Source: a virus | Taxonomy: Duplodnaviria; Heunggongvirae; Uroviricota; Caudoviricetes | IMG/VR virus record: IMGVR_UViG_3300046500_000231 | Coordinates: 10,070-74,069 of that record | DNA: 64,000 bases | Direction: 5' to 3' (one strand) | Shown here: positions 1,992 through 62,790 of the stretch, one piece after another | How positions within the stretch are numbered: the first letter of the stretch is position 1 | Layout of the letters: each line of letters starts with the position of its first letter | Notes under the pieces: model-generated | Told to the model about the DNA's origin: nothing | The model's input: the letters and a program-made list of their open reading frames with translations, nothing else | The model's database searches: none | Program-made: the position numbers and the translations under genes

Positions 1992-2009
1992 CAGTCAGTT
2001 TTGACTATT
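1992..2009. promoter_or_regulatory. conserved phage motif copy (CAGTCAGTTTTGACTATT)
   Basis: Matches the genome-wide 18-bp near-palindromic motif. Overlaps the stop of the upstream gene. Confidence 0.6.
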
Positions 2010-2396
2010 TCCCTCCGCGAGCAGATACAGCAGTCCAAGGGCGAGCGCGCAGCCTTCGTCGGATTGCTCAAACGTGCGCACAAGCTCGCCACCGAGCTCA
2101 AACACACAAACCCAGGTCTCACCCCGTTCGGGGAGCAAGAAGAACGGTTTCCCGCGCTTCTCGAACGCTTCCGCGGTGAGGGATTGATTGAGTGCGAAGT
2201 CAACCGCGGGCACCCAGTTCGATTCGCTGGGCACGCCGGCCGTTTTGTCCCAGCACTTGACGATGCCGTCCTGGATTTCGACAAAGAAGCCGAGCGTGGC
2301 TGCGATGTTGGCGTTGATCAGTTGGGCCGACATTTCGCCCGTGCCCAGCACCCGTGCCGCCGAGCATTGATCAATGTGTTCTTCTACTTCATTCAT
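1995..2396 (-). CDS. hypothetical protein
   Basis: 133-aa ORF with an AT-rich promoter-like patch upstream (2397-2440). Confidence 0.5.
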   Translation of the reverse strand: MNEVEEHIDQCSAARVLGTGEMSAQLINANIAATLGFFVEIQDGIVKCWDKTAGVPSESNWVPAVDFALNQSLTAEAFEKRGKPFFLLPERGETWVCVFELGGELVRTFEQSDEGCALALGLLYLLAEGNSQN

Positions 2397-2484
2397 TACT
2401 TTCTTTATTAGTTATATGTTTTATATACGGTAGCGGTGTGGGAGCCCAAGTCATACCCAAGTGATAGCTGCGGTCCCAACACGC

Positions 2485-2811
2485 TTACGCTGGCTCATAG
2501 AACTCGTCGGACCCGATATCGTCGGCTTCGTCGATGACATACGCCGGCCCCTTCTTGACACCTACGCCCACGTAGCCGGCGCCCGCCGGCGTAATGCCGA
2601 TCATCACGTGCCGGCGGCCGCGCCGCTTTTCGCTACCCAACTTGTGGATGAGCCCGTGCTTGATGAGCGCGCGGATCGAAAACTGGATCGACGCCTTGGT
2701 CGTCTCGTAGTTGATGCGCTCGATGATCTGATCGAGGTCGCACGCGGAACCGTCTTCGTTTCCGGTCCCGATCACGCGCAAAAGCTCGATCTGCTTGACG
2801 GTAAGGTGCAT
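2485..2811 (-). CDS. hypothetical protein, possible winged-helix regulator
   Basis: 108-aa ORF with HTH-like segment LTVKQIELLRVIGTG. Weak. Confidence 0.35.
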   Translation of the reverse strand: MHLTVKQIELLRVIGTGNEDGSACDLDQIIERINYETTKASIQFSIRALIKHGLIHKLGSEKRRGRRHVMIGITPAGAGYVGVGVKKGPAYVIDEADDIGSDEFYEPA

Positions 2812-3719
2812 CAGGCGGCTCCAACCGTGCGGTAGAGGGTCAAGGGTGCATCGACCGGCTGGACGTCGAATTCGAGCAGATGAATGCGATCCGGCAGTTC
2901 ACGGCCAAAGTCGGGGTTCTGGTAGACGCCATAGAGGGGGCTTGCAAACACCAACTGCTGGATCTGCTTGAGGAGCCAGCCCGGTGCGTAGCCGTCGATG
3001 CGTGCCCGCGCGTCAAAGCGCTTGTTGCCCGACTTCTCCCGACTGGAGTTGCGGAAATAGAAGTCGCGCATCTCCTTGATGCACTTCTCCCGCACGGCTG
3101 CCGGCATCGCCTCGAGCTCCTCCATCACGCCCACGTAATCGGAGGGGATCGCATCGAACCAGCGGCGGAAAAACACGAGACCCGCCTCGTATTTCTGCGA
3201 CGGCTCGGGTTTGACAAAGCGCACGCCGGCCTTGGCCGCGAACGGGTTGAACTTGCTCATCGAGGACTGGAACTCCACGATGCGCGCCCCGCTCATGCGC
3301 ATCATGAGGTTCTGCATCCGGTAGGCAATCCCCGCGCCCCGATACATGGTGTCGAGCACCAGGCGCGAGTTCGTGGTCGCGTTGTCGTTGATCCAGTTCA
3401 GGCGGTATTTGTTGATGAGCTTCGAGTCGAGCCCACCCACGTTCGGCCGCAGGTGCGTGAACGCCTTGTTGCGCCCGCTCGAGATCGCCGAGGAAACCGT
3501 CATCACCCCAACGCCGATCGTCTGCCCGCGCAACACGCACCGGTAGAACTTGGGGCCAAACGGCAGGTTCTCCGCCTTGTAGTGGAGCTCGTGCAAGAGA
3601 TCCCAGTCCGCCTTGGTGCCGCGCTCGACGTAAATCTCGGGCAAGAGCGACAGTGTGTGGGCGGTGGGCGGTGCCGATCGTTCGATCAGCACATCGGCGT
3701 TGTCGGTGATGATGGTCAT
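2811..3719 (-). CDS. hypothetical protein, possible GNAT-fold acetyltransferase
   Basis: 302 aa. RGAGIA resembles the GNAT acetyl-CoA motif. Weak. Confidence 0.35.
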   Translation of the reverse strand: MTIITDNADVLIERSAPPTAHTLSLLPEIYVERGTKADWDLLHELHYKAENLPFGPKFYRCVLRGQTIGVGVMTVSSAISSGRNKAFTHLRPNVGGLDSKLINKYRLNWINDNATTNSRLVLDTMYRGAGIAYRMQNLMMRMSGARIVEFQSSMSKFNPFAAKAGVRFVKPEPSQKYEAGLVFFRRWFDAIPSDYVGVMEELEAMPAAVREKCIKEMRDFYFRNSSREKSGNKRFDARARIDGYAPGWLLKQIQQLVFASPLYGVYQNPDFGRELPDRIHLLEFDVQPVDAPLTLYRTVGAA

Positions 3720-3982
3720 GCCTTTTTCTTTTCCATGAAGCGCTGCCAGAACCAGATGCTCGATGCGATCCCGCAGCAGCCGCCGGCAGCGCTCGCGGAG
3801 AACGCCAGGAGGTCGCCAGAAGCCGCCGCGTGCGCAAAGACGAACTGACCCACGCTGATGCCGAAGGACGTCACCACGGACGCGATATAGCGCCCCTGGT
3901 TGACGTTCTTGGACTGAATCCCGAGCAGGAACACCGACCCGAAGGCCGATGCGAACAGGATGAGCAGTTGGAGCGTGGTCAT
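3716..3982 (-). CDS. holin-like small membrane protein
   Basis: 88 aa, ~3 hydrophobic segments, basic C-terminus KKKA. Lies near the terminase, the usual lysis position. Confidence 0.4.
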   Translation of the reverse strand: MTTLQLLILFASAFGSVFLLGIQSKNVNQGRYIASVVTSFGISVGQFVFAHAAASGDLLAFSASAAGGCCGIASSIWFWQRFMEKKKA

Positions 3983-6311: not shown

Positions 6312-6817
6312 CAGGCGGCTCGCTGGTTGATCGACACCCACCAGGCCATCGCCTTGGGGTTGTCCTGCCAGAGTTGGCACAGGCCGTGAGCGCCCATCGT
6401 GGTGAAGTCTTCCTCTTCCGGACCATCGCCGAGCAGCCCGTAATGGAAGTGAATCGCGTGCAGCACCTCGTGGATGAAGGTGTCGGCCAAGTTCTGCGCG
6501 TTCTGATCCGGCGCCAGGCGAATCGTCTGGTTGATCGGGTTCATGTGGCCGAAGCTCATCGAGGCTTGACTGTCGCCCGAGTCCTGCACCGACACCGCGA
6601 AGCGGAAGTTGCCGATCTTCAGCGAACTCGGCACGCCCACATACGGGTCGAAGGGCTTCACTCGCTGAGCACCGCGACGAGCAGCGCCACCGCGAGGAGC
6701 TCGTCCTCGCTGAGTCCGCTCAACGGGCTTGACGGCTTCGAGCAGATCCAGGCCGTCGCCGCTATCGCCATGCCGACCAGCACCATCACGATGATCGCTG
6801 TCATGTCCATATTTCAT
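6311..6817 (-). CDS. HExxH zinc-metallopeptidase-like protein
   Basis: FIHEVLHAIHFH motif. Basic, low-complexity N-terminus. Confidence 0.5.
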   Translation of the reverse strand: MKYGHDSDHRDGAGRHGDSGDGLDLLEAVKPVERTQRGRAPRGGAARRGAQRVKPFDPYVGVPSSLKIGNFRFAVSVQDSGDSQASMSFGHMNPINQTIRLAPDQNAQNLADTFIHEVLHAIHFHYGLLGDGPEEEDFTTMGAHGLCQLWQDNPKAMAWWVSINQRAA

Positions 6818-6834
6818 AGTCAATTCTGAGTGGT
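6817..6834. promoter_or_regulatory. conserved phage motif copy (TAGTCAATTCTGAGTGGT)
   Basis: Variant of the genome-wide motif. Overlaps the start codon context ATGACTATGAAA. Confidence 0.45.
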
Positions 6835-6841: not shown

Positions 6842-7483
6842 TTATGCGCAGACAGCCTTGGCGTGAGCCACAAAAGCGTCTGCGCCCGTGAGTCCGGTCT
6901 GTTCTTCGATCAGCGCCATGAACCGCGCGAGGTGCTTTTCATCGCGCCCCGCCACCGCTTTGAAGCCCAGCGCCTTTTCGAGCTTCACTTCCCGCGCGTC
7001 GGTCTTCTCGACCGTTTTGGCGGTCTCTGCAGCCTGCTCGCGCACTTCTGCGTCCAGATCCTCCACGAACGGTTCGTCGTTGATGACCGACAAGTCCGCC
7101 GTCATGAAGTCGAGCTCCTTGGCGTCGAAGATGCTGCCGAGGTCAAAGTCGAGACTGGCGAGTTCTTCCTGCAGGATGCGCGCGTCGATCTCGGAGAGCG
7201 CAACCCTGTTATCGGCCAGGCGCAGCGCCCGCGCCTGCTCTTTGGTGAGGTCATCGCGCACCACCACCGGCACGTGGGTCTGACCGAGCGAGAGCGCGGC
7301 AAGACGCCGGCCGTGGCCTGCGATGATGGTGCCGTCGGCTTCCGCGACGATCGCCGTGTTCCAGCCGAACTCCGTGATCGAGGCGGCGATCTTCTTGATC
7401 TGCGCCTCGTCGTGGGTCTTGGCGTTCAGTTCATACGGCTTGAGCCACTCGACGGGCTTGAGCGTGGGTTTGAATTCGTTCAT
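6842..7483 (-). CDS. ParB-like nuclease domain protein
   Basis: IIAGHGRRLAA ParB N-terminal-domain motif. Confidence 0.7.
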   Translation of the reverse strand: MNEFKPTLKPVEWLKPYELNAKTHDEAQIKKIAASITEFGWNTAIVAEADGTIIAGHGRRLAALSLGQTHVPVVVRDDLTKEQARALRLADNRVALSEIDARILQEELASLDFDLGSIFDAKELDFMTADLSVINDEPFVEDLDAEVREQAAETAKTVEKTDAREVKLEKALGFKAVAGRDEKHLARFMALIEEQTGLTGADAFVAHAKAVCA

Positions 7484-7672: not shown

Positions 7673-8080
7673 TCAAACCGTGATCCAGTCATCGGCGAAA
7701 ATCTCGCTCTGCGTCGGCGCATACACGCGCGGCTCATCGCCCTCGCGCGTCAGCACAATGCGTCCGTTCTGCACGCTCAAGGTGCTCAGGCTCCAGCCAA
7801 CGCGCTTGACCCGCAGACCGTGCTTGATCGCCTCGAGCGCCATGCTGAAGCTCAGCCCGACCGCCTTGCGATAGGCCGCGTCAAAGACGTCCTTGGGGCT
7901 CCACGAGACGTAGCCCGCATGCTTCGCGTGATTCGATGCGCCGCCATCCATGTATTCGACGAGATAGCCGGCGTCGAGCGGGTCTTCGTTTGCCGGAACC
8001 GTCCAGCCGCGATAGTCGTTGTATTCGCCGCGTGTCATGGGCTTGGCGAAAATGACTTTGGTGCCGATGTATCGAATCAT
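7673..8080 (-). CDS. DUF2829-domain protein (Tad2-like) with conserved N-terminal YIGTK domain
   Basis: C-terminal half LSFSMALEAIKHGLRVKRVGW...PTQSEIFADDWITV fits the DUF2829 consensus. N-terminal half YIGTK...PMTR..YNDYRGW...GYLVEY...WSPKDVF. Confidence 0.6.
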   Translation of the reverse strand: MIRYIGTKVIFAKPMTRGEYNDYRGWTVPANEDPLDAGYLVEYMDGGASNHAKHAGYVSWSPKDVFDAAYRKAVGLSFSMALEAIKHGLRVKRVGWSLSTLSVQNGRIVLTREGDEPRVYAPTQSEIFADDWITV

Positions 8081-8730
8081 GATTTCGGGGAGAGAAGGTG
8101 AACGAGCGCTGCGCCCGCGTTGGAAAGCGAGTCGTCTTCGGTGAAGCGCTGCGCCTTCATGGTCTTTTCGATCAGGTCCGTGATGGCGCCGACGTCCTCG
8201 ACGGGCACCTTGAAGCGCATGATCTGGTGCGTCTGCACCACGGCTTCCTTGGGTAACGGGGTTGGGGCCGCGTCATCGTCCGGTATATCTAAGTCATCCA
8301 GTTCTATATTTACGGATGAAAAGATTGAAGCGAAGTCGGCGTCCGTGTAGGGCAAGAAAGTCGACAGGTCTTCCGGCGTGCTCATGCCCTCGAGCAACTC
8401 GGCCAAGCGAAGCGTGTCGTCGTTGCCATAGCGGGCGTTATCCACCAGGCCGATCTCTTTGGCCTTGTTGTCGTCGATTGCGCCCACGTTCATCACGGGC
8501 ACTTTGTCCAGACCGAGGCGGATTGCAGCGTCGCGTCGATGCGCGCCACCGAGGATCTGATAGCTGCCGTCGGCGAGCGTGCGCACGATGATCGGCTTGA
8601 ACATGCCGAGGCGCTTCAGAGACGCCTCGATCTTGGCCTCCTCCTCCGGGCTGCACACGTTGGTGTTCCACGGATTGGGCTTGAGAGCGGAAGGCGACAG
8701 TTCGAGGGTTTCGATGTGGGGCTTACCCAT
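8077..8730 (-). CDS. ParB-like nuclease domain protein
   Basis: LKPNPWNTN and ILGGAHRRDAAIRLG motifs. Confidence 0.7.
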   Translation of the reverse strand: MGKPHIETLELSPSALKPNPWNTNVCSPEEEAKIEASLKRLGMFKPIIVRTLADGSYQILGGAHRRDAAIRLGLDKVPVMNVGAIDDNKAKEIGLVDNARYGNDDTLRLAELLEGMSTPEDLSTFLPYTDADFASIFSSVNIELDDLDIPDDDAAPTPLPKEAVVQTHQIMRFKVPVEDVGAITDLIEKTMKAQRFTEDDSLSNAGAALVHLLSPKS

Positions 8731-8750
8731 AGATTCCAGGCGTGGTTAAT

Positions 8751-8768
8751 TAGTCAGGACTGACTGTT
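8751..8768. promoter_or_regulatory. conserved phage motif copy (TAGTCAGGACTGACTGTT) in divergent region
   Basis: 15 bp upstream of the minus-strand gene start at 8730. 45 bp upstream of the plus-strand helicase. Confidence 0.5.
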
Positions 8769-8796: not shown

Positions 8797-10368
8797 ATGG
8801 CAACTCGGAACATGGCTACGATCACCCTCGCCTACAACGCGACCACCGCAAAGCTCGTGGAGACCGACCGGGCGCTCAAATTGGAAGTGCAGAAGCTCGT
8901 CTCCTACAAGGTCTCGGGCGCCGAGAACACCCTGCCCTTCAAAACGGGCGGCTGGGACGGCCGCAGCTCCTTCTTCGACTTCCGCAAAGGCACCTTCCCC
9001 GCCGGCTTCGTGCATTTCGTGGCCGCAGGCCTGCGCCGAGCCGGGCACACCGTGCGCTTTGTCGCCAAAGAGGCGCCCGCACCGCTTGGGCCCCTCAACC
9101 CGAAGATCGACAGCTTCCCGGAAGACCCCCGCTACGACTACCAGATGGAGACGGTCAACCGGCTGGTGAAGCACCGCCAGATCATTGCCCAGTTGGCAAC
9201 CGGGGCCGGGAAGTCACGGGTTGCGCGTCTCGCCTTCGCCCGTATCCGCCGCCCGACGCTCTTTCTCACGACCCGCTCGATCCTCATGTATCAGATGAAA
9301 GACGCGTTCGAGGAGCTGGGAGTGAAGTGCTCGGTGCTGGGCGACGGACAGTTCGGAACGGTCACAGTCGGTGCCGACGGTGAAGAACGACACTCGGTGA
9401 AGATGATGAGCGTTGGCATGGTTCAGACGCTCGTAGCGCGTCTTGCCGAACCGTGCCCGGACGATGACGTCGAGAAACAAAACGAGCAAATCCGCATTCG
9501 CAACAAGACGATCGCGCTCCTGGAGAAATTCGAGTTCGTGATCGGTGAGGAGGCACACGAGGCGAGCGGCAATAGCTACTTTGAGATCCTCAAGCACTGC
9601 AAGAACGCGCACTACCGCCTGGCGCTCACCGCCACGCCCTTCATGAAGGACGATGAGGAATCGAACATGCGGCTCATGGCCGCGTTCGGCCCGATCGGCA
9701 TCAAGGTGAGCGAGAAGATGCTGATCGACCGCGGCATCTACGCCAAGCCGTTCTTCAAGTTCATCCAGCTCGAGCACAAGCCCGCCAAACTCTTTCGCGG
9801 CACGACCTGGCAGGCCGCCTACCGGATCGGCATCGTCGACAACGTGGAACGCAACGCCAAGATCGTGTTCGAGGCGCGTCGCGGGGCGGCGCTCAAGCAG
9901 CCGGTGATGATTCTTGTGCAGCAGACGCGGCACGGTGAGCTTTTGCGGGAGCAACTGGCGGCCAAAGGCGTGCGCGTGGAGTTCCTGCAGGGCGAGAACA
10001 ACGCAAAGGAGCGAAAAGCGGCGCTGGGGCGACTTCGGCAGCGCGAAACCGAGGTGCTGATCGGCACGACCATCATGGACGTCGGTGTGGACGTGCCGGC
10101 GATCGGGCTGGTGATTCTCGCCGGCGGTGGGAAGGCGCAAGTGGCGCTACGTCAGCGCATTGGCCGCGGTGCGCGCGAGAAGAAGAAAGGCCCGAACTGC
10201 TTTTTCGTGGTCGACTTCGACGATCCGTGGAATTCCCACACGAAAGAGCACGCTTTGGCGCGCCGTGCGATCGTGGAATCGACGCCGGGCTTTGTCGAAA
10301 ACATCCTCCCGCCGGGCAAGGACTTCGATTTCGTGGGCCTGGGCTTTGCGACTCGCAAGGCAGCGTGA
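8797..10368 (+). CDS. SF2 DEAD/DEAH-box family helicase
   Basis: Walker A ATGAGKS, DEAH-like GEEAHE, helicase C-terminal motifs (TAT, QRIGRGAR). Confidence 0.8.
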   Translation: MATRNMATITLAYNATTAKLVETDRALKLEVQKLVSYKVSGAENTLPFKTGGWDGRSSFFDFRKGTFPAGFVHFVAAGLRRAGHTVRFVAKEAPAPLGPLNPKIDSFPEDPRYDYQMETVNRLVKHRQIIAQLATGAGKSRVARLAFARIRRPTLFLTTRSILMYQMKDAFEELGVKCSVLGDGQFGTVTVGADGEERHSVKMMSVGMVQTLVARLAEPCPDDDVEKQNEQIRIRNKTIALLEKFEFVIGEEAHEASGNSYFEILKHCKNAHYRLALTATPFMKDDEESNMRLMAAFGPIGIKVSEKMLIDRGIYAKPFFKFIQLEHKPAKLFRGTTWQAAYRIGIVDNVERNAKIVFEARRGAALKQPVMILVQQTRHGELLREQLAAKGVRVEFLQGENNAKERKAALGRLRQRETEVLIGTTIMDVGVDVPAIGLVILAGGGKAQVALRQRIGRGAREKKKGPNCFFVVDFDDPWNSHTKEHALARRAIVESTPGFVENILPPGKDFDFVGLGFATRKAA

Positions 10369-10409
10369 ATCATGGTATTTTGACCGTCACTACTGACTAA
10401 GGAGCGCCC

Positions 10410-10595
10410 ATGAAGCACGCCCTGTTTCTGAACCTCATGATTCTCGCGCTCATTCTCGCCGTGGTGTGGGTGACTGGCCGCGGTGAGCCCCTGATTGCGC
10501 TCGTTTTGCTGCGCGATATGCCTTTCGGGTTGCTCATGCAGCAGCCGCCCGAGGAGGACGACGACCCCAAGATCGGCTTCACCGCCGAGGTCTGA
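10410..10595 (+). CDS. small membrane protein
   Basis: AAGGAG RBS. One TM segment, acidic tail. Confidence 0.5.
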   Translation: MKHALFLNLMILALILAVVWVTGRGEPLIALVLLRDMPFGLLMQQPPEEDDDPKIGFTAEV

Positions 10596-10596
10596 A

Positions 10597-10632
10597 AAGA
10601 GCCCCGCTAACCACGCGGGGCTTTTTCTTTGC
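10597..10632 (+). terminator. rho-independent terminator (plus strand)
   Basis: AGCCCCGC...GCGGGGCT stem followed by TTTTTCTTT. Confidence 0.7.
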
Positions 10633-10696
10633 ACGTCAGTTCTGATTGGGCGCTATAATCCGCGTGTATTTATTTTATTTCACGCAAGGAAAGAAC

Positions 10697-10972
10697 ATGA
10701 CAACCACCGCTGACACGAAGCGCTACACCCTCATCATCGGAGCCGAGCAGCAGCAAAAGCTCGCCGCAATGGCCAAAGATAATGGCATCAGCCAGGCCGA
10801 CGTGATCGAGGTGCTGGTCGAGCAGGCCGACGAGGCGAAGCTCAAGAAGGCCTTCGCCACCAAGAAGGAATCGAAGGTCGAGACGCGCGGGCGCAAGAAG
10901 GATCTCACCAAGATGATCGAGGCGCTCTCACCGGAAGAACGCGCCGCGCTGATGGCGAAGCTGCAGGGATGA
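10697..10972 (+). CDS. hypothetical protein
   Basis: 91 aa. Preceded by a TATAAT box (~10653) and AAGGA RBS. Confidence 0.5.
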   Translation: MTTTADTKRYTLIIGAEQQQKLAAMAKDNGISQADVIEVLVEQADEAKLKKAFATKKESKVETRGRKKDLTKMIEALSPEERAALMAKLQG

Positions 10973-11349
10973 CCCGGCTACTCGTCTGTGGTGGGCGAGA
11001 TTTCGAGGATCAGCAGTTCACCGATTGGGCGATGGATGCGATACACGCACGGCGCCCAATTTCATTGCTGATCGAAGGAGGCGCTCGAGGTGGCGATCGG
11101 TGCGCTCGGACGTGGGCTGAGAAGCGCGGCATTCCGGTGAGAACGTTCGAGGCGGACTGGAAGCACTACCGTCACCGCGCCGGCCCCATTCGAAATCAGC
11201 AGATGCTCGACGAGGGGCATCCCGAGCTCGTGGCGGCGCTCCCAGGCGGCAAGGGCACGACCGACATGGTGATGAAGGCTCGCGCAGCCGGGGTGCGCGT
11301 CATCACCCTCTGGAGCCATTACGAGCGTTACAGGTTGGCGTTCAGATAG
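10969..11349 (+). CDS. SLOG-fold DUF2493-like protein
   Basis: LLVCGGRDFED...LLIEGGARGGD signature. ATGA-coupled to the upstream gene. Confidence 0.6.
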   Translation: MTRLLVCGGRDFEDQQFTDWAMDAIHARRPISLLIEGGARGGDRCARTWAEKRGIPVRTFEADWKHYRHRAGPIRNQQMLDEGHPELVAALPGGKGTTDMVMKARAAGVRVITLWSHYERYRLAFR

Positions 11350-11910: not shown

Positions 11911-11930
11911 TCAGTCATTATTGACTGTGT
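11911..11930. promoter_or_regulatory. motif variant (TCAGTCATTATTGACTGTGT)
   Basis: Upstream of the plus-strand HNH gene. Confidence 0.4.
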
Positions 11931-12778: not shown

Positions 12779-12787
12779 GTTTTATCT

Positions 12788-12805
12788 CAGTCAGTTTTGA
12801 CTGTT
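12788..12805. promoter_or_regulatory. conserved phage motif copy (CAGTCAGTTTTGACTGTT) abutting parS
   Basis: Exact core motif. Its 3' end overlaps the parS site. Confidence 0.6.
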
Positions 12806-12817
12806 TCACGTGAAACA
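12802..12817. promoter_or_regulatory. parS site (TGTTTCACGTGAAACA)
   Basis: 16/16 match to the canonical ParB-binding parS palindrome. Confidence 0.75.
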
Positions 12818-13622: not shown

Positions 13623-13638
13623 TGTTTCACGTGAAACA
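13623..13638. promoter_or_regulatory. parS site (TGTTTCACGTGAAACA)
   Basis: Second perfect canonical parS, followed by a half motif TTGACTGTT. Confidence 0.75.
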
Positions 13639-13659
13639 CTCACTATTGACTGTTACGCG

Positions 13660-15035: not shown

Positions 15036-15230
15036 TCAATACAGCTCCATCATGCCCACGCGCCCATTGGTGCGGATCTGACGGCGCAGGTGAGCAATCT
15101 CCGCCTCTTCCTGCTGCTCCTCGAGCCAGTCGATGAGTTCGTGCGGCTTGGCGGCGCGGTGCTGGTGGTCCGCGGCTTCGATCGAGGCTTCAACGGCGAT
15201 GTGGGTGTGTGCGGCGGTCTTCATAGTCAT
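15036..15230 (-). CDS. small hypothetical protein
   Basis: MTMKTAAHTHIAVEAS... Confidence 0.4.
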   Translation of the reverse strand: MTMKTAAHTHIAVEASIEAADHQHRAAKPHELIDWLEEQQEEAEIAHLRRQIRTNGRVGMMELY

Positions 15231-15241
15231 TTTTGAGTGTT
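15224..15241. promoter_or_regulatory. motif copy inside a gene overlap (TAGTCATTTTTGAGTGTT)
   Basis: Overlaps the ATGACTATGAAG start context. Confidence 0.4.
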
Positions 15242-15704: not shown

Positions 15705-16031
15705 TTACAAGGCGATCGGATTCTTCTCGGGATCGAGGTGATCGTTCAGGTCGAAATACAGGGCGCGCAGGCAGGCATCGTTGCAGGCGGTGATATCGGC
15801 ATCGAAACAGGAGCGATGGATCTCGTAAACCGTGGAGTCGGCACCGTGCGTCTGCTGTTGCAGGGCGACGAATTCGAGCGTTTCCGGATCGCAGGTGATC
15901 AGAAAGAGGCTGAACGTCGAGTCGAGAAAGAGGTAGGCGGCGCGCTCAAACGGGGCGTCAGAGCGGTTGGCTTCGTAATACGCACGCAGATCAGCAATCG
16001 CAAGGGTGGTCGGTTTCTTCGTCGTTTTCAT
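15705..16031 (-). CDS. hypothetical protein
   Basis: Start at MKTTKKPTT. Confidence 0.45.
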   Translation of the reverse strand: MKTTKKPTTLAIADLRAYYEANRSDAPFERAAYLFLDSTFSLFLITCDPETLEFVALQQQTHGADSTVYEIHRSCFDADITACNDACLRALYFDLNDHLDPEKNPIAL

Positions 16032-16622
16032 CGCGTTTCTCGCGTTGTTTGAGAGTGATTGCATTGTGCAGCACATACTCAGGAATGACTGCGGCTATCG
16101 GCATGGGAGCGCGCACTCCGCCGGCCTAGGCCTTCTCCCTTGGGCACGCCCTGCTCCCTACCCCTACCGAGGCCTAGGCGCTCTCCCTCGGGCACACGCC
16201 TTGGGTATCGGCCTAAAGAGCCCAAGGACACTCCCGCTCAAATTTCCTATGGGTGTCGGGCGCCGCTCCCGTTTCCTGCTCCCGAGGGGTAAGCCCTAGG
16301 CGTGAGGAGTGGGTGCGGGTAAAACTTGGGATATGTGTCGGCGTCGGCTGCCGTTTCCTCGAGCTTCCCCACGCACGCGCACGGGGTTTGGTTTTGGGTT
16401 TTACTAGACACATCCGATGAGGAACCCTAGTGGAAGAATAAGCCCCCCTACCCCCCACAGACCTATAATCCCTGTGTGTGAGAGATAGAGAGCCCTATTC
16501 GTCCCCAAGGCACCCACATCGGAGCTATCCGCGTATGGCAACCCAACAGGTAAGAACAAGCCCCCAGAAAAGAAGCGACTCCCGACGCCAAACACTCGTC
16601 GGCAAACAATGTGAGGGAATCA

Positions 16623-16640
16623 TAGTCAGTGGTGACTGTT
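16623..16640. promoter_or_regulatory. motif copy (TAGTCAGTGGTGACTGTT)
   Basis: In the non-coding repeat region downstream of the GYGEVW cluster. Confidence 0.5.
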
Positions 16641-18906: not shown

Positions 18907-18943
18907 TTCTCTCTTCTCCTTCTGTGAATTCTCAGGCCTGGTC

Positions 18944-19050
18944 ACTGGCGGCGGGACTCGAACCCGCAATTACCGGCGGTTTCAGGTTTGATGGCGTCGA
19001 GTTCTGGCGCCTCGCTTACCAACCCCGGAAACCCTAGCCGCCCGCGTCTA
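18944..19050 (-). ncRNA. tRNA-like element (T-arm GCGGGTTCGAGTCCCGC) flanked by 17-bp inverted repeats
   Basis: Canonical T-stem-loop. I could not fold a full cloverleaf by eye. Confidence 0.35.
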
Positions 19051-21609: not shown

Positions 21610-21682
21610 TTCGGTCGCTTTCGCTGTTGTTTTCGACAGAGAAAGTATCTCGCAACGATGCAGGAATGTATGCGGCTATATT

Positions 21683-21699
21683 ATTCAGTTTTGACTGTT
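21683..21699. promoter_or_regulatory. motif copy (ATTCAGTTTTGACTGTT)
   Basis: Intergenic, upstream of the minus-strand gene at 21609. Confidence 0.55.
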
Positions 21700-23639: not shown

Positions 23640-23722
23640 GATTCGTTTTCTCCGAAAGTTGATTTGTGTGTATCGCGTCGCTTTCATGCTGTATCGCGTG
23701 TTTCGCTGCGATGTATGAATAT

Positions 23723-23738
23723 TAAGTTCTGACTATTG
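23723..23738. promoter_or_regulatory. weak motif variant (TTAAGTTCTGACTATT)
   Basis: Upstream of the gene starting at 23639. Confidence 0.35.
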
Positions 23739-26563: not shown

Positions 26564-26582
26564 TGACTCAATTCTGACTGTT
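26564..26582. promoter_or_regulatory. weak motif variant (TGACTCAATTCTGACTGTT)
   Basis: ~30 bp upstream of the start at 26536. Confidence 0.4.
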
Positions 26583-27252: not shown

Positions 27253-27282
27253 AACCGCACCTCCAGAACTGTCTGTTTCGAT

Positions 27283-27300
27283 AGTCAATTGTGACAAACG
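27283..27300. promoter_or_regulatory. motif copy (TAGTCAATTGTGACAAAC)
   Basis: First of two tandem copies upstream of the kinase-like gene. Confidence 0.5.
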
Positions 27301-27314
27301 ATGTGAGGATAATA

Positions 27315-27332
27315 TAGTCAGTTGTGACTGTT
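27315..27332. promoter_or_regulatory. motif copy (TAGTCAGTTGTGACTGTT)
   Basis: Second tandem copy. Confidence 0.55.
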
Positions 27333-31374: not shown

Positions 31375-31418
31375 ATCGATTTCTCCTCTGAACGGTTAAA
31401 CACTTAGTCTTGCGTCAC

Positions 31419-31436
31419 TAGTCAGTTTTGACTAAT
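31419..31436. promoter_or_regulatory. motif copy (TAGTCAGTTTTGACTAAT)
   Basis: 45 bp upstream of the start at 31374. Confidence 0.55.
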
Positions 31437-36495: not shown

Positions 36496-36929
36496 ACCTC
36501 CTTGTAGCCTTTGGGGGTGAGCTTCTCGCCCACTCCGTTGAAGAAATCCTGCGCCTCGCGCGCGGTGTCGAAATTCATTACACGTGGGGCGCCGTGCGCC
36601 TCACCCATCAACACGCGGTCCTCGCCCGCAGTCCACGCCACGCGCAGCAAACTTGCATTCCGAAAACCGGGCGCGCGGCTGAACACCCGCTTTAATTCGA
36701 TGGCGCTCGTCGGGCACAACGCCTGTGCCTCGCTCACCAACTCGATGAAATCCTTTCTGAGCAGCCCGCTCACGGCCATGAACAACACGTCCACGCCGGT
36801 TGAGAATTGGTGCGCAGTGATGCGCCCTTGTGCGACCGAATGCGTGAGCCACTCCAGCGTCTCGAACGCCTTGCGGTCAATTTCCTCTTGCAGCGTCGGC
36901 AAGTCAGTGTTGACTTTCGCCAAACCCAT
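36492..36929 (-). CDS. hypothetical protein
   Basis: 145-aa ORF. Confidence 0.45.
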   Translation of the reverse strand: MGLAKVNTDLPTLQEEIDRKAFETLEWLTHSVAQGRITAHQFSTGVDVLFMAVSGLLRKDFIELVSEAQALCPTSAIELKRVFSRAPGFRNASLLRVAWTAGEDRVLMGEAHGAPRVMNFDTAREAQDFFNGVGEKLTPKGYKEV

Positions 36930-37003
36930 GTTCTGCCCCTCTAGATAACGTGCGCAACGTTGCGCGACTTGTTGTTATCTTATAGATTGCTGCTCGGGAA
37001 AAC

Positions 37004-37020
37004 AATCAGTTTTGACTGTT
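37004..37020. promoter_or_regulatory. motif copy (AATCAGTTTTGACTGTT) inside a flanking inverted repeat
   Basis: GCTCGGGAA...TTCCCAAGC arms flank the motif. 66 bp upstream of the gene start at 36929. Confidence 0.55.
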
Positions 37021-37040
37021 CCCAAGCAGATTACCAACAC

Positions 37041-40455: not shown

Positions 40456-40529
40456 TGTTTCCTCAACGTGGGACTGGAAACCCCGGTCGCGCTGACCGGG
40501 GCGAAACTGCGTTACTGATACTTATATTA

Positions 40530-40547
40530 TAGTCAGTTTTGACTATT
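40530..40547. promoter_or_regulatory. motif copy (TAGTCAGTTTTGACTATT)
   Basis: ~75 bp upstream of the gene start at 40455. Confidence 0.6.
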
Positions 40548-41841: not shown

Positions 41842-41860
41842 TGCTTTCTCCAGGGAAAAC

Positions 41861-41881
41861 TCCCCGCACGTGGCGGGGAGA
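41861..41881. promoter_or_regulatory. 8-bp GC stem-loop (CTCCCCGC-ACGTG-GCGGGGAG) between motif and RBS
   Basis: Perfect inverted repeat in the 5' leader. Confidence 0.45.
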
Positions 41882-41899
41882 TAGTCAGTTTTGAGTGTT
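41882..41899. promoter_or_regulatory. motif copy (TAGTCAGTTTTGAGTGTT)
   Basis: Shares the extended GAGTGTTGCT tail with the copy at 44278. Confidence 0.55.
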
Positions 41900-44238: not shown

Positions 44239-44277
44239 TTGATACCTTTCTAGTCGGTTGGCGGGGTTGGAATAATA

Positions 44278-44294
44278 CGTCAGTTCTGAGTGTT
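44278..44294. promoter_or_regulatory. motif variant (CGTCAGTTCTGAGTGTT)
   Basis: 40 bp upstream of nrdA. Confidence 0.5.
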
Positions 44295-44474: not shown

Positions 44475-44483
44475 TGCTCTCCA

Positions 44484-44500
44484 GGTCAAAACTGACTACA
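44484..44500. promoter_or_regulatory. motif copy, inverted orientation (GGTCAAAACTGACTACA)
   Basis: Forms a divergent pair with the copy at 44510. Confidence 0.5.
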
Positions 44501-44509
44501 CATTGATTA

Positions 44510-44527
44510 TAGTCAGTTTTGACTGTT
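44510..44527. promoter_or_regulatory. motif copy (TAGTCAGTTTTGACTGTT)
   Basis: Exact consensus. Confidence 0.6.
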
Positions 44528-49565: not shown

Positions 49566-49577
49566 TCTTCTCTCCTT

Positions 49578-49596
49578 AGTCACTTCTGACTGGTTC
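49578..49596. promoter_or_regulatory. motif variant (TAGTCACTTCTGACTGGTT)
   Basis: Packed between the SleB stop (49598) and the sbcD start (49565). Confidence 0.5.
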
Positions 49597-50002: not shown

Positions 50003-50042
50003 ACTCCTCGCTACTCGACTTAAAATTCATTATACACCGAGT

Positions 50043-50060
50043 AGTCAGGGGTGACTGTTA
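50043..50060. promoter_or_regulatory. motif copy (TAGTCAGGGGTGACTGTT)
   Basis: Upstream of the SleB gene. Overlaps the upstream TAA stop. Confidence 0.55.
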
Positions 50061-51844: not shown

Positions 51845-51903
51845 GAGTCGCTCCTAACGGTGAGTGCATTACACACATCATAGTCAGGAGCGACTTACTG
51901 CCG

Positions 51904-52932: not shown

Positions 52933-52939
52933 AGTGTGT

Positions 52940-52957
52940 TAGTCAGTTTTGACTGTT
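52940..52957. promoter_or_regulatory. motif copy (TAGTCAGTTTTGACTGTT) 7 nt from a start codon
   Basis: Exact consensus. No room for a conventional RBS between it and the ATG at 52932. Confidence 0.6.
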
Positions 52958-54802: not shown

Positions 54803-54894
54803 TTCGCTTTTCCTTTTACAGTTTGGTAGTTAGGTTTATGCCTTTTAGACTTCGCGGTGAGGATCACCGCGTCATCGTTTCAGCTAGAACATTA

Positions 54895-54912
54895 TAGTCA
54901 GGATTGACTATT
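54895..54912. promoter_or_regulatory. motif copy (TAGTCAGGATTGACTATT)
   Basis: 93 bp upstream of the start at 54802. Palindrome GCGGTGAGGATCACCGC at 54854-54870 lies in between. Confidence 0.5.
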
Positions 54913-54927: not shown

Positions 54928-56103
54928 TTAGCTGTTTGCTGCCCGAGCGGCATTCACCGCACGGTTGGCCAGGTGGTCGCGCTCGGCTTGCGCAGCCATG
55001 ATACGAACCTGACCCTTGCTTTCGTCGCGGCGATCGGCACCGAGCTGGATCACCATGTCCCGGCGATCGGCAAGCGCACCGACGCAGGCCTTTGCGACGG
55101 CTGCGATCGACTCGGCCTCGATAACCATGATCTTGCCGGCGATCCACTTTGGATCGAGCTTGACCGCGTTCTCGATAGCCTTCTCGGTAGCCTTCTCGCC
55201 CGCTTTGGCGAATTCCTTTCGATGGTGGGCGTAAAGCTGCGCCTCGCGCACGTCAAAACGCGCCTTGATGGATGCGGCTTGCGCTTCTGCACGCGCGGCG
55301 ACCGCACCGTGGTAGGCACGCATCGACGCCTGCGTCATCATGCAGTTGTCCAGGTTCGTCTCCGTCACCTGCATGTCGCGCTTGAATTCGTCCACGTCAA
55401 TGTAGAAGTCGAGCGATGCCTTCGCCTTTTTCTTGACCGCTTCAGCAAGAGCTTCTTCTTCCTCTGCCGAGATTGGGGTCGGTTTTGGGGCCGGTGCTGG
55501 CTTTGTCGGCTCGGGTTCCGGAGTGGGCCTGCCCTTCTGGAAGTTCCTCATCGCTTCCTCCAGCTCTCCAACGTCCTCCCCGGCCGCTTTTGCGGCTGCA
55601 ATCGACTTCTCAAGGTGGGCTCGCTGCGCCGCACCGATCTTCGCCATCTCTGCGCCAGCTACGGCGAGAATGTCGGCATCGCTGAGCGCGGCGGGCTGCT
55701 CTTGCCAGGGCGGTGTCTCAGGCGGCGCAACCGTGCCCGATGCAATCTCGGCTTCGAGTGCCGCGAGATCGTCATCGACGTTGGATTCAGTCGTTGCGGG
55801 CGTGCCCGAGAGCGACGCAGGCAGCACGAAGGTCGAGCCGTCATCGTCTTCCATCACCACCGCACCCTCGTCGGTCGCTTCGGGCGTCGGCACTGGCACT
55901 ACCGGCTCGGGCTGCGCCGGTTTCTCATACAGACCGCCGTCGAGCTCCAGCTCGTCGAGCTCCTCGTCGCTCACTTCCGGCTCTGGGGCGGGTGCCGCTT
56001 TCGGTGCGGGGGTGGCGGCGACCGCGGAGACGCCGGTCGAGGCTTCCAGTTCTGCCATCAGCGCGTCGAGTTCTTCGTCGGACGCCGGAATTTCGTTTGC
56101 CAT
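54928..56103 (-). CDS. hypothetical protein with acidic disordered N-terminus
   Basis: 391-aa ORF. Confidence 0.45.
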   Translation of the reverse strand: MANEIPASDEELDALMAELEASTGVSAVAATPAPKAAPAPEPEVSDEELDELELDGGLYEKPAQPEPVVPVPTPEATDEGAVVMEDDDGSTFVLPASLSGTPATTESNVDDDLAALEAEIASGTVAPPETPPWQEQPAALSDADILAVAGAEMAKIGAAQRAHLEKSIAAAKAAGEDVGELEEAMRNFQKGRPTPEPEPTKPAPAPKPTPISAEEEEALAEAVKKKAKASLDFYIDVDEFKRDMQVTETNLDNCMMTQASMRAYHGAVAARAEAQAASIKARFDVREAQLYAHHRKEFAKAGEKATEKAIENAVKLDPKWIAGKIMVIEAESIAAVAKACVGALADRRDMVIQLGADRRDESKGQVRIMAAQAERDHLANRAVNAARAANS

Positions 56104-56173
56104 GTTTGCTCCTCGTGTATGTGAAAAACTTCACTGACTGACGCGCATTGTATCGACGCGCGTCAGGGTTTAC

Positions 56174-56191
56174 TAGTCAGTTGTGACTGTT
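56174..56191. promoter_or_regulatory. motif copy (TAGTCAGTTGTGACTGTT)
   Basis: Between the dnaE stop and the next start. Confidence 0.55.
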
Positions 56192-60819: not shown

Positions 60820-60830
60820 GCTCAGATTCC

Positions 60831-61478
60831 TTACAGTGATTCGATCAACTTGCGCACTTCCTTGCCGGCAGCCGTAATCTCTTTGGCGCGTTCGGGCATG
60901 GTCAGGCGCAAGAACTTGCAGATGAAGGACACATTCACGCCCGCGAAGCTGCGCATGTCCTGTCCGACGCTGCGCGCGTATTCGGCGTGGGCCTGATGCT
61001 TGGCGACTTCCTCGAGCAGTAGCTTGGGCGGCTGGGCGATCCACTCAACGATCACCGCGGCGATCGGGCTCAAGCCCTCAACCACCCGCTCCATCGCCTC
61101 GCTCGCTTCGCGCCGCTCAAGCCATTCGTCCGGGGTCATCGCCTCGCACGGAATGCGCTCGATGGCGTGCATGTCCTCGTCGGTCGTGAGCTCCTCGAAG
61201 CTGCGCACGCCGTTGGTGATGCGCTCCTCCTCGACGTCTTCCGCCACGCGGTTGAGCTTGTTGTAGGCAGCGCGTGCGAAGTAGGTGTTGAATTCGAAGC
61301 CCTTCGTCGGATCAAACTTCTGATGGGCCTCAACAAAAGCGATGCGCACATCGCCAAACACATCGTCATAGTCCAATGCGGCGCCCATCCCCTGGAGCCG
61401 TCCGTAGCACTTGCGCGCTACCGTGTGGACGAACCCCAGGTTGCCGGCATAGCACTCGGAAACGTCAGTGCTATACAT
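60831..61478 (-). CDS. phage-encoded sigma-70-family RNA polymerase sigma factor
   Basis: Region 2 match FDPTKGFEFNTYFARAAYNKLNR (cf. FDPxRGFxFSTYA...R). Confidence 0.6.
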   Translation of the reverse strand: MYSTDVSECYAGNLGFVHTVARKCYGRLQGMGAALDYDDVFGDVRIAFVEAHQKFDPTKGFEFNTYFARAAYNKLNRVAEDVEEERITNGVRSFEELTTDEDMHAIERIPCEAMTPDEWLERREASEAMERVVEGLSPIAAVIVEWIAQPPKLLLEEVAKHQAHAEYARSVGQDMRSFAGVNVSFICKFLRLTMPERAKEITAAGKEVRKLIESL

Positions 61479-61483
61479 GGCGA

Positions 61484-62683
61484 TTACGAGAAGATGCGTT
61501 GAGCCAGGCCGTCGCAGACTTCGCGGTCCACTTTCGACAGCTTGTTGATGAAGGACAGTTGCAAGCCCTGGCGCCACGAACCGCGCTTCACGCCGATCTT
61601 TGCCGCGTAGATCAAGGTGCGAGGCGAGATCACATCGCTGATCTTGGCGCCGTCGTAGGCTTCACGAACGAGCGCGGCGAAGTCCACGAGCTTGTCGGCG
61701 TCATCGGCGCGCAGACCGCAGCGCTTTTGCAGGATGAGGCTTTCGAACTGTTTCTTCATGTATTGCTTGTGGATCACCATGCCGAAACGGTCGTAGTTGG
61801 CGCTGTTTTGCAGCGACGTGCCCTGATACAGACCGGTTTCGTCACCCGAGCCGTTGGTGTTGCCGGTTGCCACGAAACGGAAGTTCGGGTGCGGCTTGAT
61901 CACGCGGTTGGCGGCGTCCGCCTCCTTGATCACGAGCGGCTTGCCCTCGAGCACGGCCTGATACACCGAGAGGACCGACGGCAGCGCGAAGTCGTATTCG
62001 TCGGCGGCGTAGACCCAGCCGTTTTTCATGGCAAGCGGGAGCGGTCCGAGTTCGAACTGCGTGGCGCCGTCCTTGACCGTCCACTGACCGACGATGTGGC
62101 TTTCTTCCGTGTTGACCGTATGCTGCACGCGCAGTTGGGCGCGACCGGTGCGGGCGCAAATCTGCTCGTAGAGGTCCGACTTGCCCGAGCCCTTGTGACC
62201 CCACACGTAGCAGGGGATGCCGAGCTCCAGCGCGAGGATGACGTTCTTCAGTTCGTCCACGTCATACACGTAGTCATCCGAGATCGTCGGGACCATATCC
62301 GGGTGCTCCGGCGTCGGGATGATGCTGATCGGGATCGCTTCGCCCTTCGCCGACAGTGCCGTCTTGATCTTGCCCAGGTTGAACACTTCGTGGAACGCGC
62401 CCTTCGTCGTCGCGCCCTTCGGGATCAGTGCCGACACCGATGCGAGTGCTGCGCCCGTGCCTGCCATCTCGACCGCAGCCGGTGCGGCTGCTGCTGCCGC
62501 TTCCTTATCGCGGCGCTTCTTCTCCAGTTGCTCTTGCGCGAGCGCCGAGAGGATCGGTGCGTCGGGGAACTTCGTCTGATACTCGGCGATGCTCAACTCC
62601 GGATGGTCGTTCTTCAGGTGCGACTGGATGACGTGGACGTGCGCACCGCAGATTTTGCATTCGATTTTGTTGGTGTCGCTCAT
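61484..62683 (-). CDS. CobS/MoxR-like AAA+ ATPase with N-terminal C2H2-like zinc finger
   Basis: GHKGSGKS Walker A. CKICGAHVHVIQSHLKNDH. Confidence 0.65.
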   Translation of the reverse strand: MSDTNKIECKICGAHVHVIQSHLKNDHPELSIAEYQTKFPDAPILSALAQEQLEKKRRDKEAAAAAAPAAVEMAGTGAALASVSALIPKGATTKGAFHEVFNLGKIKTALSAKGEAIPISIIPTPEHPDMVPTISDDYVYDVDELKNVILALELGIPCYVWGHKGSGKSDLYEQICARTGRAQLRVQHTVNTEESHIVGQWTVKDGATQFELGPLPLAMKNGWVYAADEYDFALPSVLSVYQAVLEGKPLVIKEADAANRVIKPHPNFRFVATGNTNGSGDETGLYQGTSLQNSANYDRFGMVIHKQYMKKQFESLILQKRCGLRADDADKLVDFAALVREAYDGAKISDVISPRTLIYAAKIGVKRGSWRQGLQLSFINKLSKVDREVCDGLAQRIFS

Positions 62684-62772
62684 TGTTCTTTCTCCAAAGT
62701 GTGGTGAGTTATTACTGAGTGCAGCAACGTTGCTGCGATATGAGAATGATAATGTCGCTTGCTCGGGAACGC

Positions 62773-62790
62773 TAGTCAGTTTTGACTGTT
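62773..62790. promoter_or_regulatory. motif copy (TAGTCAGTTTTGACTGTT) flanked by 10-bp inverted repeats
   Basis: GCTCGGGAAC...GTTCCCGAGC arms on either side. Confidence 0.6.

Follow-up and report, generated by a model that had tools for sequence, protein, structure and literature searches.

A repeated palindromic motif fused to −10-like promoter elements as a predicted operator in a Caudoviricetes phage genome

Cluster A mycobacteriophages carry tens of co-oriented stoperators in short intergenic gaps, 13- to 14-bp asymmetric sites that are read by a monomer (gp71 in phage L5) and mainly block elongation away from promoters, and motif and repressor co-evolve between subclusters. The conserved inverted repeats (CIRs) of phage phiC31 and the KorA and KorB sites of plasmid RK2 are palindromic operators of one repressor at many promoters of a mobile element, with KorA sites overlapping the −10 element. 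In the phage-plasmid P1, the asymmetric C1 operators (ATTGCTCTAATAAATTT) are sites of ~17 bp that recur at numerous promoters dispersed over the genome and govern early and immunity functions; they are annotated in the −35/−10 spacer (Oref), on the −10 element (OrepL), just past it (Ossb), and clustered or bivalent at the immunity region (Oc1ab). The late promoters of P1, which belong to Lpa and are confined to late operons, are annotated as nAC-AAGTGACTT-N4-TAnnaT, that is, with a 9-bp inverted repeat in place of a −35 element, 4 nt and a −10 hexamer (centre at about −22), and the lpa gene lies just before the packaging genes. This late promoter box occurs in 11 copies in P1 (PMC10695390). 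Here, we analyze a motif repeated along a 64,000-nt stretch of Caudoviricetes DNA (positions 10,070 to 74,069 of IMG/VR record IMGVR_UViG_3300046500_000231; the window). In gene direction, this motif is a 19-bp near-palindrome with the consensus AAC AGTCA AAAC TGACT A(T), and we read it, with a probability of roughly 0.45, as the predicted operator of one phage-encoded dimeric regulator that would be fused into phage core promoters and act mainly as a repressive site.

A search with TAGTCAGTTTTGACTGTT at up to 3 mismatches gave 19 matches, all on the plus strand, compared to 0 in 100 shuffles, while AGTCA-N4-TGACT with at most 1 mismatch matched 30 times in the window against 1.34 expected (maximum 5) and a weight matrix distinguished 31 sites (Table 1). 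Pooling the window sites with those of its relatives (119 non-identical sites in total) left the consensus unchanged; these relatives include several IMG/VR contigs with 70% to 86% identity to the window (individual relatives are given L numbers below). The motif had been called genome-wide from this 64-kb window, and in relatives it is also found in tail and replication modules. The sequence-only reading that first described the motif had listed 28 copies, of which 27 were recovered within 2 nt and the remaining one (10634) is a weak plus-strand copy; beyond this list, we found copies at 10385 (in the plus-strand gene block), 16077, 36902 (inside an open reading frame, ORF), and 51882. By our own gene calls, 29 of 32 candidate sites lie wholly in non-coding DNA, or 30 of 32 with the JGI start for the ribonucleotide reductase (RNR; site 44278), even though non-coding DNA makes up at most 19% of the window, and the proposed enrichment between genes is thus real. 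Motif orientation tracks gene direction as had been noted, and the copies of the plus-strand block (10385 and 10634) flip with their genes. The start codon follows the end of the motif after 8 to ~125 nt (7 to ~90 nt in the earlier estimate), and recA lacks a Shine-Dalgarno (SD) sequence. No other repeated motif was found in the gaps of the window beyond CA-repeats, which stand right before start codons (CACACATG, 5 times), and the palindrome CCTAGG (9 copies vs. 0.4 expected), both of which are enriched in its non-coding DNA.

The two arms of the motif are conserved to 87% to 100% over the 119 non-identical sites, and their sole common variant is the same G/C swap on either side (ACTCA or TGAGT). 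In orthologous gaps of relatives with 70% to 86% identity, the half-site positions are 0.78 to 0.95 identical, compared to ~0.6 for the surrounding non-coding DNA and ~0.5 for spacer positions 5 and 8, with small extra peaks at positions 18 and 25. Two more distant relatives, L123 and L124 (CobT ~60% identical), keep AGTCA-N4-TGACT with different flanks (TC...TG), and arms and flanks therefore are separate modules. A hairpin of 5 bp with a 4-nt loop could alternatively serve in RNA as a processing site, a stability element, or a translational operator: the motif can fold (−3.2 to −4.0 kcal/mol), and several copies stand right before an SD sequence (49578, 10385, and a class of sites with an upstream GCTATAA in Rhizobium phage RHph_X66). 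However, this stem is weak, AT-rich, and without a T-run, there is no Rfam match at the motif at gathering threshold (the sole match in the window, a tRNA at 18943-19069, is unrelated), the distance to the start codon varies widely, and, if the start follows the −10-like box described below, the motif would not be transcribed from its own promoter. In 191 sites, 180 arm pairs differ from the consensus; 139 of these are broken, 39 form wobbles, and only 2 are compensated. This near-absence of compensation at near-invariant arms points to a DNA site for a dimeric protein and not to a hairpin, so that we give next to no credence to an RNA element, including the processing signal that had been considered earlier.

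Conservation in the flank is highest at the T that closes the right arm and the A that follows it, and these begin a −10-like hexamer. Hexamers starting from this T-A have on average 3.67 matches to TATAAT, compared to 2.87 for control T-A hexamers, and at least 5 of 6 matches are seen in 6 of 21 motif hexamers vs. 2.8% of controls; three of them are perfect TATAAT. Upstream −35 hexamers show no enrichment (best match 2.61 vs. 2.32 to 2.43 in controls). The proposal that the motif is a promoter thus finds support in the fused −10-like hexamer and none in a −35 element, and the remark that it does not look like a sigma70 −35/−10 pair in the gene direction was right about the −35 and wrong about the −10. 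Because the hexamer occupies positions 13 to 18, transcription would start near position 25, at which A is both over-represented and conserved, which places the palindrome centre at approximately −19 relative to this predicted start. At least 8 of 12 matches to the −35/−10 consensus are found at ~7 of 28 sites, and complete promoters with the palindrome in their spacer lie at 16624, 27316, and 21683 (Table 1). A plain sigma70 consensus scan of the region from 40 to 60 kb was uninformative, with 3 promoters vs. 4.3 expected and 44511 as the sole motif site matched. The strong promoters at 44511 and 27316 have a second copy of the motif downstream, inverted in the former and in tandem in the latter. 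An antisense promoter was considered with TTGACT on the opposite strand as a possible −35 element and rejected, as no −10-like signal lies at the required distance. The motif also does not appear to fit, by sequence and spacing, the consensus sequences of IHF, FNR/CRP, LexA, and extracytoplasmic function (ECF) sigma factors.

Some genes begin so close to the motif that it might set their starts directly. The recA gene (52932) and the ORFs at 6810 and 12778, which encode small membrane proteins, start 7 to 12 nt past the motif without an SD sequence and with their ATG at positions 21 to 26, and their mRNAs are possibly leaderless. The earlier suggestion of a leaderless-start signal may hold for these three genes; as a general role, it is made unlikely by the spread of start codon distances. 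In relative L005, a 10-nt insertion with an SD sequence lies ahead of recA. The copy at 1993 lies just 5′ of a complete TTGACA-N17-TAGAGT promoter; a hairpin with a T9 run and then the genes for a TerS-like protein and TerL follow. The hairpin (GGGCGC...GCGCCC) is found ~45 nt past this promoter, and the arrangement at 1872-1990 on the minus strand, up to the TerS-like gene, is kept in L006 and L001. By analogy, it looks like either a small RNA or a late promoter with a terminator that would need antitermination as at lambda pR′-tR′.

The nearest cultured relatives of the phage by the alpha subunit of DNA polymerase III (PolIII alpha) are the Rhizobium phages RHph_X66, B1VFA, V1VFA-S, and RHEph10 (43% to 45% amino acid identity), followed by Stenotrophomonas and Pseudomonas phages such as nickie and by SSU5-like phage-plasmids (37%). 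Phage-plasmid-like features (parA, parB, repC) have been described for B1VFA and V1VFA-S (PMC12509600). Related palindromes are repeated in several of these genomes: RHph_X66 and B1VFA have 31 to 33 copies of TAAGTAA-N4-TTACTTA vs. 0 to 0.2 expected (31 vs. 0.2 for RHph_X66), all of them intergenic and spread over early, replication, tRNA, and structural modules; in RHEph10, ARTCA-N4-TGAYT with a subsequent TA occurs 19 times; and SSU5 has ~13 copies of TAAGTA-N6-TACTTA, 9 to 10 of which are followed by TAnnnT and preceded by an A-tract. The inner half-sites thus form one family with one-base shifts between lineages: the window has AGTCA, RHEph10 has ARTCA, and RHph_X66, B1VFA, and SSU5 share AGTAA. 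Orthologous gaps are occupied in clades with differing half-sites (before PhoH, before DnaB, after the primase gene, and before a tail gene), and this joint shift of all copies by lineage indicates that they change in concert with something phage-encoded. The motif is present in temperate or phage-plasmid-like relatives, i.e., in SSU5, RHph_X66, B1VFA, RHEph10, a Paraburkholderia contig from a metagenome-assembled genome (MAG), and L124, which has an integrase; by contrast, no repeated palindrome was found in the virulent relative nickie, of whose 112 kb 100 kb were covered.

In RHph_X66, the palindrome occurs in two settings. It lies in the spacer of CTTGCA-N18-TACAAT-type promoters in some late-gene gaps, while in nine other gaps it follows a separate TCC-N11-GCTATAA box at a distance of 2 to 11 nt and immediately precedes the SD sequence, where a bound factor could only hinder transcription from that box. 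The box itself occurs 20 times on the gene strand and 5 times on the opposite strand, with eight copies lacking a nearby palindrome, and possibly represents a promoter class of the host RpoD or of the phage sigma factor. A GCTATAA likewise stands ahead of palindromes in L124 (2267) and the plus-strand block of the window (10650). Just past the right end of the window, where the DNA was judged from relative L008 (78% to 81% identity), five copies lie within 570 bp between a divergent XRE-family helix-turn-helix (HTH) gene and CobT; no such cluster is found beside the XRE gene in L123 and L124. Taken together with the symmetric half-sites, their shared G/C swap, the lack of compensation, and the tandem and inverted copies, this cluster makes an operator of a phage-encoded regulator appear the best fit among the options that the sequence-only reading had raised.

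These comparisons also bear on two other explanations. The whole 19-bp motif could be the promoter of the phage's own sigma-70-family factor, given that a genuine sigma gene is encoded in the window (Table 1), that the motif is polar with a −10-like box at its end, that canonical sigma70 promoters are otherwise not enriched in the scan from 40 to 60 kb, and that the spacing of its flanks (AAC-N11-ACTAT) equals that of TCC-N11-GCTATAA in RHph_X66. Yet no sigma factor requires symmetric arms with the same tolerated variant, and the conserved blocks are palindrome arms 4 bp apart, so that the promoter elements would stand only ~9 to 11 bp from each other and not 16 to 18. Furthermore, SSU5 has the motif family without a sigma homologue and nickie has neither, promoter-like box and palindrome are separable in RHph_X66, the clade of L123 and L124 keeps the arms with other flanks, and the inverted copy at 44484 would fire against all genes. 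We therefore consider a sigma factor promoter quite improbable, and the link that had been drawn to the sigma factor of the window is not upheld. Alternatively, a host protein could bind the motif, or the motif could serve partition, packaging, replication, nicking, or a similar process on DNA apart from transcription, which would fit the two copies that adjoin a canonical parS and the ParB-like proteins found in all relatives. However, the half-site differs between phages of related hosts with all copies shifting together, the copies go along with gene starts and −10-like boxes, nickie has both ParB-like genes yet not the motif, and the ParB-like proteins have no evident HTH region, which leaves this explanation highly improbable.

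A more serious alternative is an activator box as in the P1 late promoters, where a phage dimer bound to the palindrome would replace the −35 contact and recruit RNA polymerase to the −10-like hexamer, with nearly all transcription units depending on it; the same factor could shut early promoters where the palindrome follows the −10 element of another promoter. Several observations are in line with this: the −10-like hexamer stands at a fixed register without −35 enrichment, the SSU5 copies are mostly followed by TAnnnT and preceded by an A-tract in a genome that has a separate repressor-type regulon, and the P1 late promoters share the AAC flank as well as AAGT/ACTT with SSU5 and RHph_X66 and TGACT with the window. 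In addition, site 1993 is centred at about −43.5 of the TTGACA-N17-TAGAGT promoter ahead of the packaging genes, a classic activator position, and the short distances at recA, 6810, and 12778 would fit transcription starts set by the motif. On the other side, no Lpa (PF25716) homologue was found in a Pfam scan of the window proteome or by tblastn of five related genomes, and the geometry is unlike that of P1, with a 14- to 18-bp palindrome directly at the hexamer (centre at about −19), compared to a 9-bp box at 4 nt distance. Early, replication, and late modules are all covered and not only late ones, the nine RHph_X66 copies between GCTATAA and SD sequence are placed where an activator makes no sense, the downstream or inverted auxiliary copies and the five-copy cluster resemble operators, and virulent nickie keeps the same late genes without such a motif. 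We thus regard an activator box as possible yet doubtful.

Several of our results nonetheless weigh against a mainly repressive operator. Since −35 elements are not enriched, most of the promoters would be weak for the host sigma70 alone, which is expected of activator-dependent promoters and not of repressed ones. In the window and SSU5, palindrome and −10-like box stand in an almost constant register, which a pure repressor would not need. The spacer is polar, as 103 of 119 sites have A at position 7 and none has T, and so is the AAC flank, which a symmetric dimer alone does not explain. SSU5 has in its accessory and early region (80 to 95 kb) another set of 14 AAACAA-N-TTGTTT sites ~13 nt past GATAAT that looks like a second and more classically repressor-like regulon. 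The first candidate for the binding protein also fits imperfectly, since the start of its recognition helix varies only modestly between half-site clades (KPN, QSN, NPN) and SSU5 has no detectable homologue of it.

We still favor repression because the positions of the RHph_X66 sites vary and include sites past the −10 element, because the strongest promoters carry auxiliary downstream copies, because relative L008 has a cluster of sites at an immunity-like switch, because the motif spans all gene classes, and because it is found in temperate or plasmid-like relatives and absent from virulent nickie. In the operator model, one protomer would contact each A(G/c)TCA half-site, with the half-sites spaced 9 bp apart from centre to centre, and the T-A at the end of the right arm would form the first two bases of the −10-like hexamer. 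The bound dimer, centred at about −19, would lie over the spacer and reach onto the 5′ edge of the −10 element, so that binding would mainly shut promoters, as expected of an immunity-type or global repressor that silences ~30 transcription units in a temperate phage-plasmid-like element. The constant polarity would come from the fused promoter elements (AAC at the 5′ side and CTA(T) at the 3′ side) and not from the protein. Within this model, recognition of the ~30 promoter-fused sites by one dimeric protein of the phage is the well-supported part, and the sign of regulation is inferred. A dual-function factor that acts as repressor and activator is possible, too. A bolder proposal, which we hold to be unlikely, is that the palindrome-binding factor is a universal promoter-specificity subunit for nearly every unit of a 110-kb phage-plasmid, i.e., a surrogate for the −35 contact that would be Lpa-like in action but unrelated.

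As the binding protein, the first candidate suggested by genome context is the XRE-family HTH protein whose gene heads a long operon immediately past the window on its right side. In L008, the respective gene is divergent and encodes 141 amino acids, and its homologues head a long operon in L123, L124, RHEph10 (gp041), RHph_X66 (QWY83032), and B1VFA. The small winged-helix protein of the window (phrog_900) is encoded just before the packaging genes in all clades, as is lpa in P1; it is disfavored as the binder, since, judged by its recognition helix, the window falls together with SSU5 and RHph_X66 with RHEph10, opposite to the grouping by motif. Nickie has a syntenic small ORF that resembles this protein by eye (without a tblastn match), yet it lacks the palindromes. 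The ParB-like proteins, which are conserved in all relatives, were rejected as KorB-like binders, as they have only the ParB N-terminal domain and no obvious HTH and are also found in nickie. The phage sigma factor was rejected as well, given that SSU5 and nickie have no sigma homologue and SSU5 has the motif family. No Lpa (PF25716) homologue came up when the proteins of the window were scanned against Pfam, and tblastn of Lpa against the window, its relatives, RHph_X66, B1VFA, RHEph10, SSU5, and nickie gave only E > 1.

A literature search found no description of this motif or of the transcription program of RHEph10- or SSU5-like phages. The motif provides a ready map of ~30 transcription units per genome and points to a single regulator that would be able to switch the whole element. 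Phage-plasmids like RHEph10 and SSU5 are widespread in rhizobia, Burkholderiales, and Enterobacteriaceae, and the one-base half-site shifts between their lineages constitute a natural system to study the co-evolution of a regulon with its regulator that could predict immunity and cross-regulation of co-resident phage-plasmids. If a universal surrogate of the −35 contact were at work, sites and factor shifting together would define "transcriptional compatibility groups" in the SSU5/RHEph10 superfamily, including clinically common enterobacterial phage-plasmids.

Table 1. Motif copies and selected genes of the window. The score is the weight-matrix score of the copy; SD, Shine-Dalgarno sequence.
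Feature	Sequence	Position	Strand	Score	Remarks
Motif copy	AATAGTCAAAACTGACTGT	1991..2009	-	30.9	Overlaps TAG stop of ORF 1995-2396; kept in L006, L001, L076, L111
Motif copy	ACCACTCAGAATTGACTAT	6816..6834	-	24.0	ATG of small membrane protein 7 nt on, without SD
Motif copy		8750..8768	-	27.5	ParB-like gene 8077-8730 (-) and helicase gene 8797-10368 (+) diverge from this gap
Motif copy	GACCGTCACTACTGACTAA	10382..10400	+	19.8	In plus-strand block; SD, then ATG at 10410
Weak copy	cGTCAGTTCTGATTg	10632..10650	+		Between TTGCAC and GCTATAAT; 5′ of ribbon-helix-helix (RHH)-like gene 10697-10972 (+)
Motif copy	CACAGTCAATAATGACTGA	11911..11929	-	24.2	
Motif copy		12787..12805	-	31.5	Adjoins perfect parS; ATG 10 nt on
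Motif copy	AACAGTCAATAGTGAGTGT	13636..13654	-	25.1	Adjoins second parS
Motif copy	AACACTCAAAAATGACTAT	15223..15241	-	30.1	
Weaker copy	CGCAGTCATTCCTGAGTAT	16075..16093	-	15.9	Immediately 5′ of ORF 15705-16076
Motif copy		16622..16640	-	29.4	Occupies spacer of TTGACG-N17-TATGAT
Motif copy		21681..21699	-	30.5	Spacer of TTGCAC-N17-TAATAT
Weak copy	AATAGTCAGAACTTAATAT	23719..23737	-	21.0	
Motif copy	AACAGTCAGAATTGAGTCA	26564..26582	-	22.5	
Tandem second copy		27281..27299	-	18.8	33 bp downstream of copy 27316
Motif copy		27314..27332	-	33.0	In TTGCTA-N16-TATATT
Motif copy		31418..31436	-	28.1	5′ of gene 30991-31374 and DnaQ-like exonuclease gene
Motif copy	AACAGTCAAAAATGACTAA	33503..33521	-	32.1	
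Perfect-arm copy		36900..36918	-	14.6	27 nt inside ORF 36492-36929
Motif copy		37002..37020	-	28.8	Within larger inverted repeat (GGGAAC...GTTTTCCC); paralogous to 62774 unit
Motif copy		40529..40547	-	33.5	Then TATAAT, then GC hairpin in leader
Motif copy		41881..41899	-	32.0	Between stop of RNR large subunit and terminator-like hairpin (41880-41860), 5′ of RNR small subunit
Weak copy	AACACTCAGAACTGACGTA	44276..44294	-	15.1	5′ of RNR large-subunit start 44238 (JGI call)
Inverted auxiliary copy		44481..44499	+	12.8	27 bp downstream of copy 44511; kept in L004
Perfect copy		44509..44527	-	34.8	Then TATAAT
Motif copy		49576..49594	-	24.9	Immediately before SD of SbcD; TTATAAG 9 nt upstream
Motif copy		50041..50059	-	22.8	Conserved TATAAT 8 nt downstream
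Weak copy	GTAAGTCGCTCCTGACTAT	51880..51898	-	14.0	Then TATGAT
Perfect copy		52939..52957	-	34.0	recA ATG 8 nt on, without SD
Motif copy		54894..54912	-	29.3	Then TATAAT; 5′ of SSB
Motif copy		56173..56191	-	30.3	Downstream of PolIII alpha, 5′ of gene 54928-56103
Perfect copy		62772..62790	-	32.1	In 40-bp inverted repeat GCTCGGGAAC...GTTCCCGAGC; 5′ of CobS-sigma-PolIII operon
Sigma-70-family factor		60831-61577			Pfam Sigma70_r2; TIGR02937 at 45.4 bits vs. cut-off 42.9
ParB-N-domain genes		6842-7483 and 8077-8730	- (8077-8730)		
Winged-helix protein		2485-2811			HTH_27 at 25.5 bits; phrog_900

Several copies have a setting of their own (Table 1). As had been pointed out before, sites 62774 and 37004 each stand within a larger inverted repeat, and an inverted partner copy is found at 44484. 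The units at 62761-62800 and 36985-37030 are paralogous, with the motif nested in a 40-bp inverted repeat (GCTCGGGAAC...GTTCCCGAGC) and a conserved palindrome (GCAACGTTGC) ~40 to 55 nt downstream, and L008 and L009 keep both of them. For the copy inside an ORF at 36900..36918, either an auxiliary role or a match by chance is conceivable. GC-rich stem-loops lie 1 to 30 nt downstream of some copies (41860-41880, 40480-40505, 56130-56165, and 54850-54875) in the order stop codon, motif, hairpin, and SD sequence. At site 41883, a start near position 25 would fall within the hairpin, so that transcripts initiated there would escape a terminator that blocks read-through from upstream. Two perfect canonical parS sites (TGTTTCACGTGAAACA) are found at 12802-12817 and 13623-13638, each adjoining a motif copy (12789 and 13638, respectively), while no parS with up to 2 mismatches was found in RHph_X66, B1VFA, RHEph10, and SSU5. 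Together with the two ParB-N-domain genes, this pair suggests a ParABS-type partition locus or the hijacking of the host ParB.

The window, which stems from JGI metagenomes, has a G+C content of ~60% and carries nearly all genes on its minus strand, and transcription therefore runs from 64000 to 1; the opposite strand has one short block at 8797-11349 with the helicase gene and others. Along the direction of transcription, the gene order starts with CobT, a CobS-like ATPase, the sigma-70-family factor, PolIII alpha, SSB, a 5′-3′ exonuclease, and RecA, continues with SbcCD, RuvC, the class I RNR, ThyX, and many small ORFs, and ends with the two ParB-N-domain proteins, two ABC-type ATPases, the small winged-helix protein, a TerS-like DNA-binding protein, and the start of TerL. 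The Rfam tRNA match at 18943-19069 on the minus strand (34.8 bits) spans 127 nt for a model of 71 nt and may be an interrupted or degenerate tRNA; ARAGORN calls no tRNA in the window. The Paraburkholderia sp. MAG contig (NZ_JASGFN010000003.1, 450 kb) has at least 7 copies of the motif and DNA that is 72% to 82% identical to the window at 14.9 to 23.2 kb. As it holds a related element with the same motif, this contig indicates a likely host group and a resident state as prophage or plasmid, suggesting that the host is probably a Burkholderiales bacterium and that at least some relatives reside in bacterial genomes. In relative L124, an integrase gene and an excisionase-like gene lie beside the XRE gene.

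Among the described systems, the C1 operators of P1 resemble the motif in their repetition at many promoters around the genome of a phage-plasmid, and their positions in the −35/−10 spacer, on or just past the −10 element, and in a cluster are as in the window and RHph_X66. They differ by their asymmetry from the 5-N4-5 palindrome of the window, which mostly stands in one fixed register, and by their restriction to early and immunity functions, whereas the motif would serve nearly all units; no C1 homologue turned up, although no search was aimed at one. The P1 late promoters share with the motif an inverted repeat in place of a −35 element that is followed by a −10 hexamer. However, the last base of the longer window palindrome is the first base of the hexamer with no 4-nt gap in between, and the sites of the window and its family precede CobS, SSB, RecA, SbcD, RNR, PhoH, DnaB, and tail genes and not only late operons. 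Similar to the stoperators, the motif has many co-oriented intergenic copies that co-vary with phage lineage, but it is palindromic and fused to −10-like boxes. The phiC31 and RK2 operators are unrelated in sequence, host, and protein, have 7 to 18 copies, and in phiC31 show no fixed fusion to a −10 element. The motif thus matches none of the compared systems in full, as it is palindromic, abuts the −10 element without a −35, covers all modules, and differs by one-base half-site shifts between lineages, and its likeness to the P1 late promoter box hints at a broader, unrecognized class of phage promoters made of a palindrome plus a −10 element.

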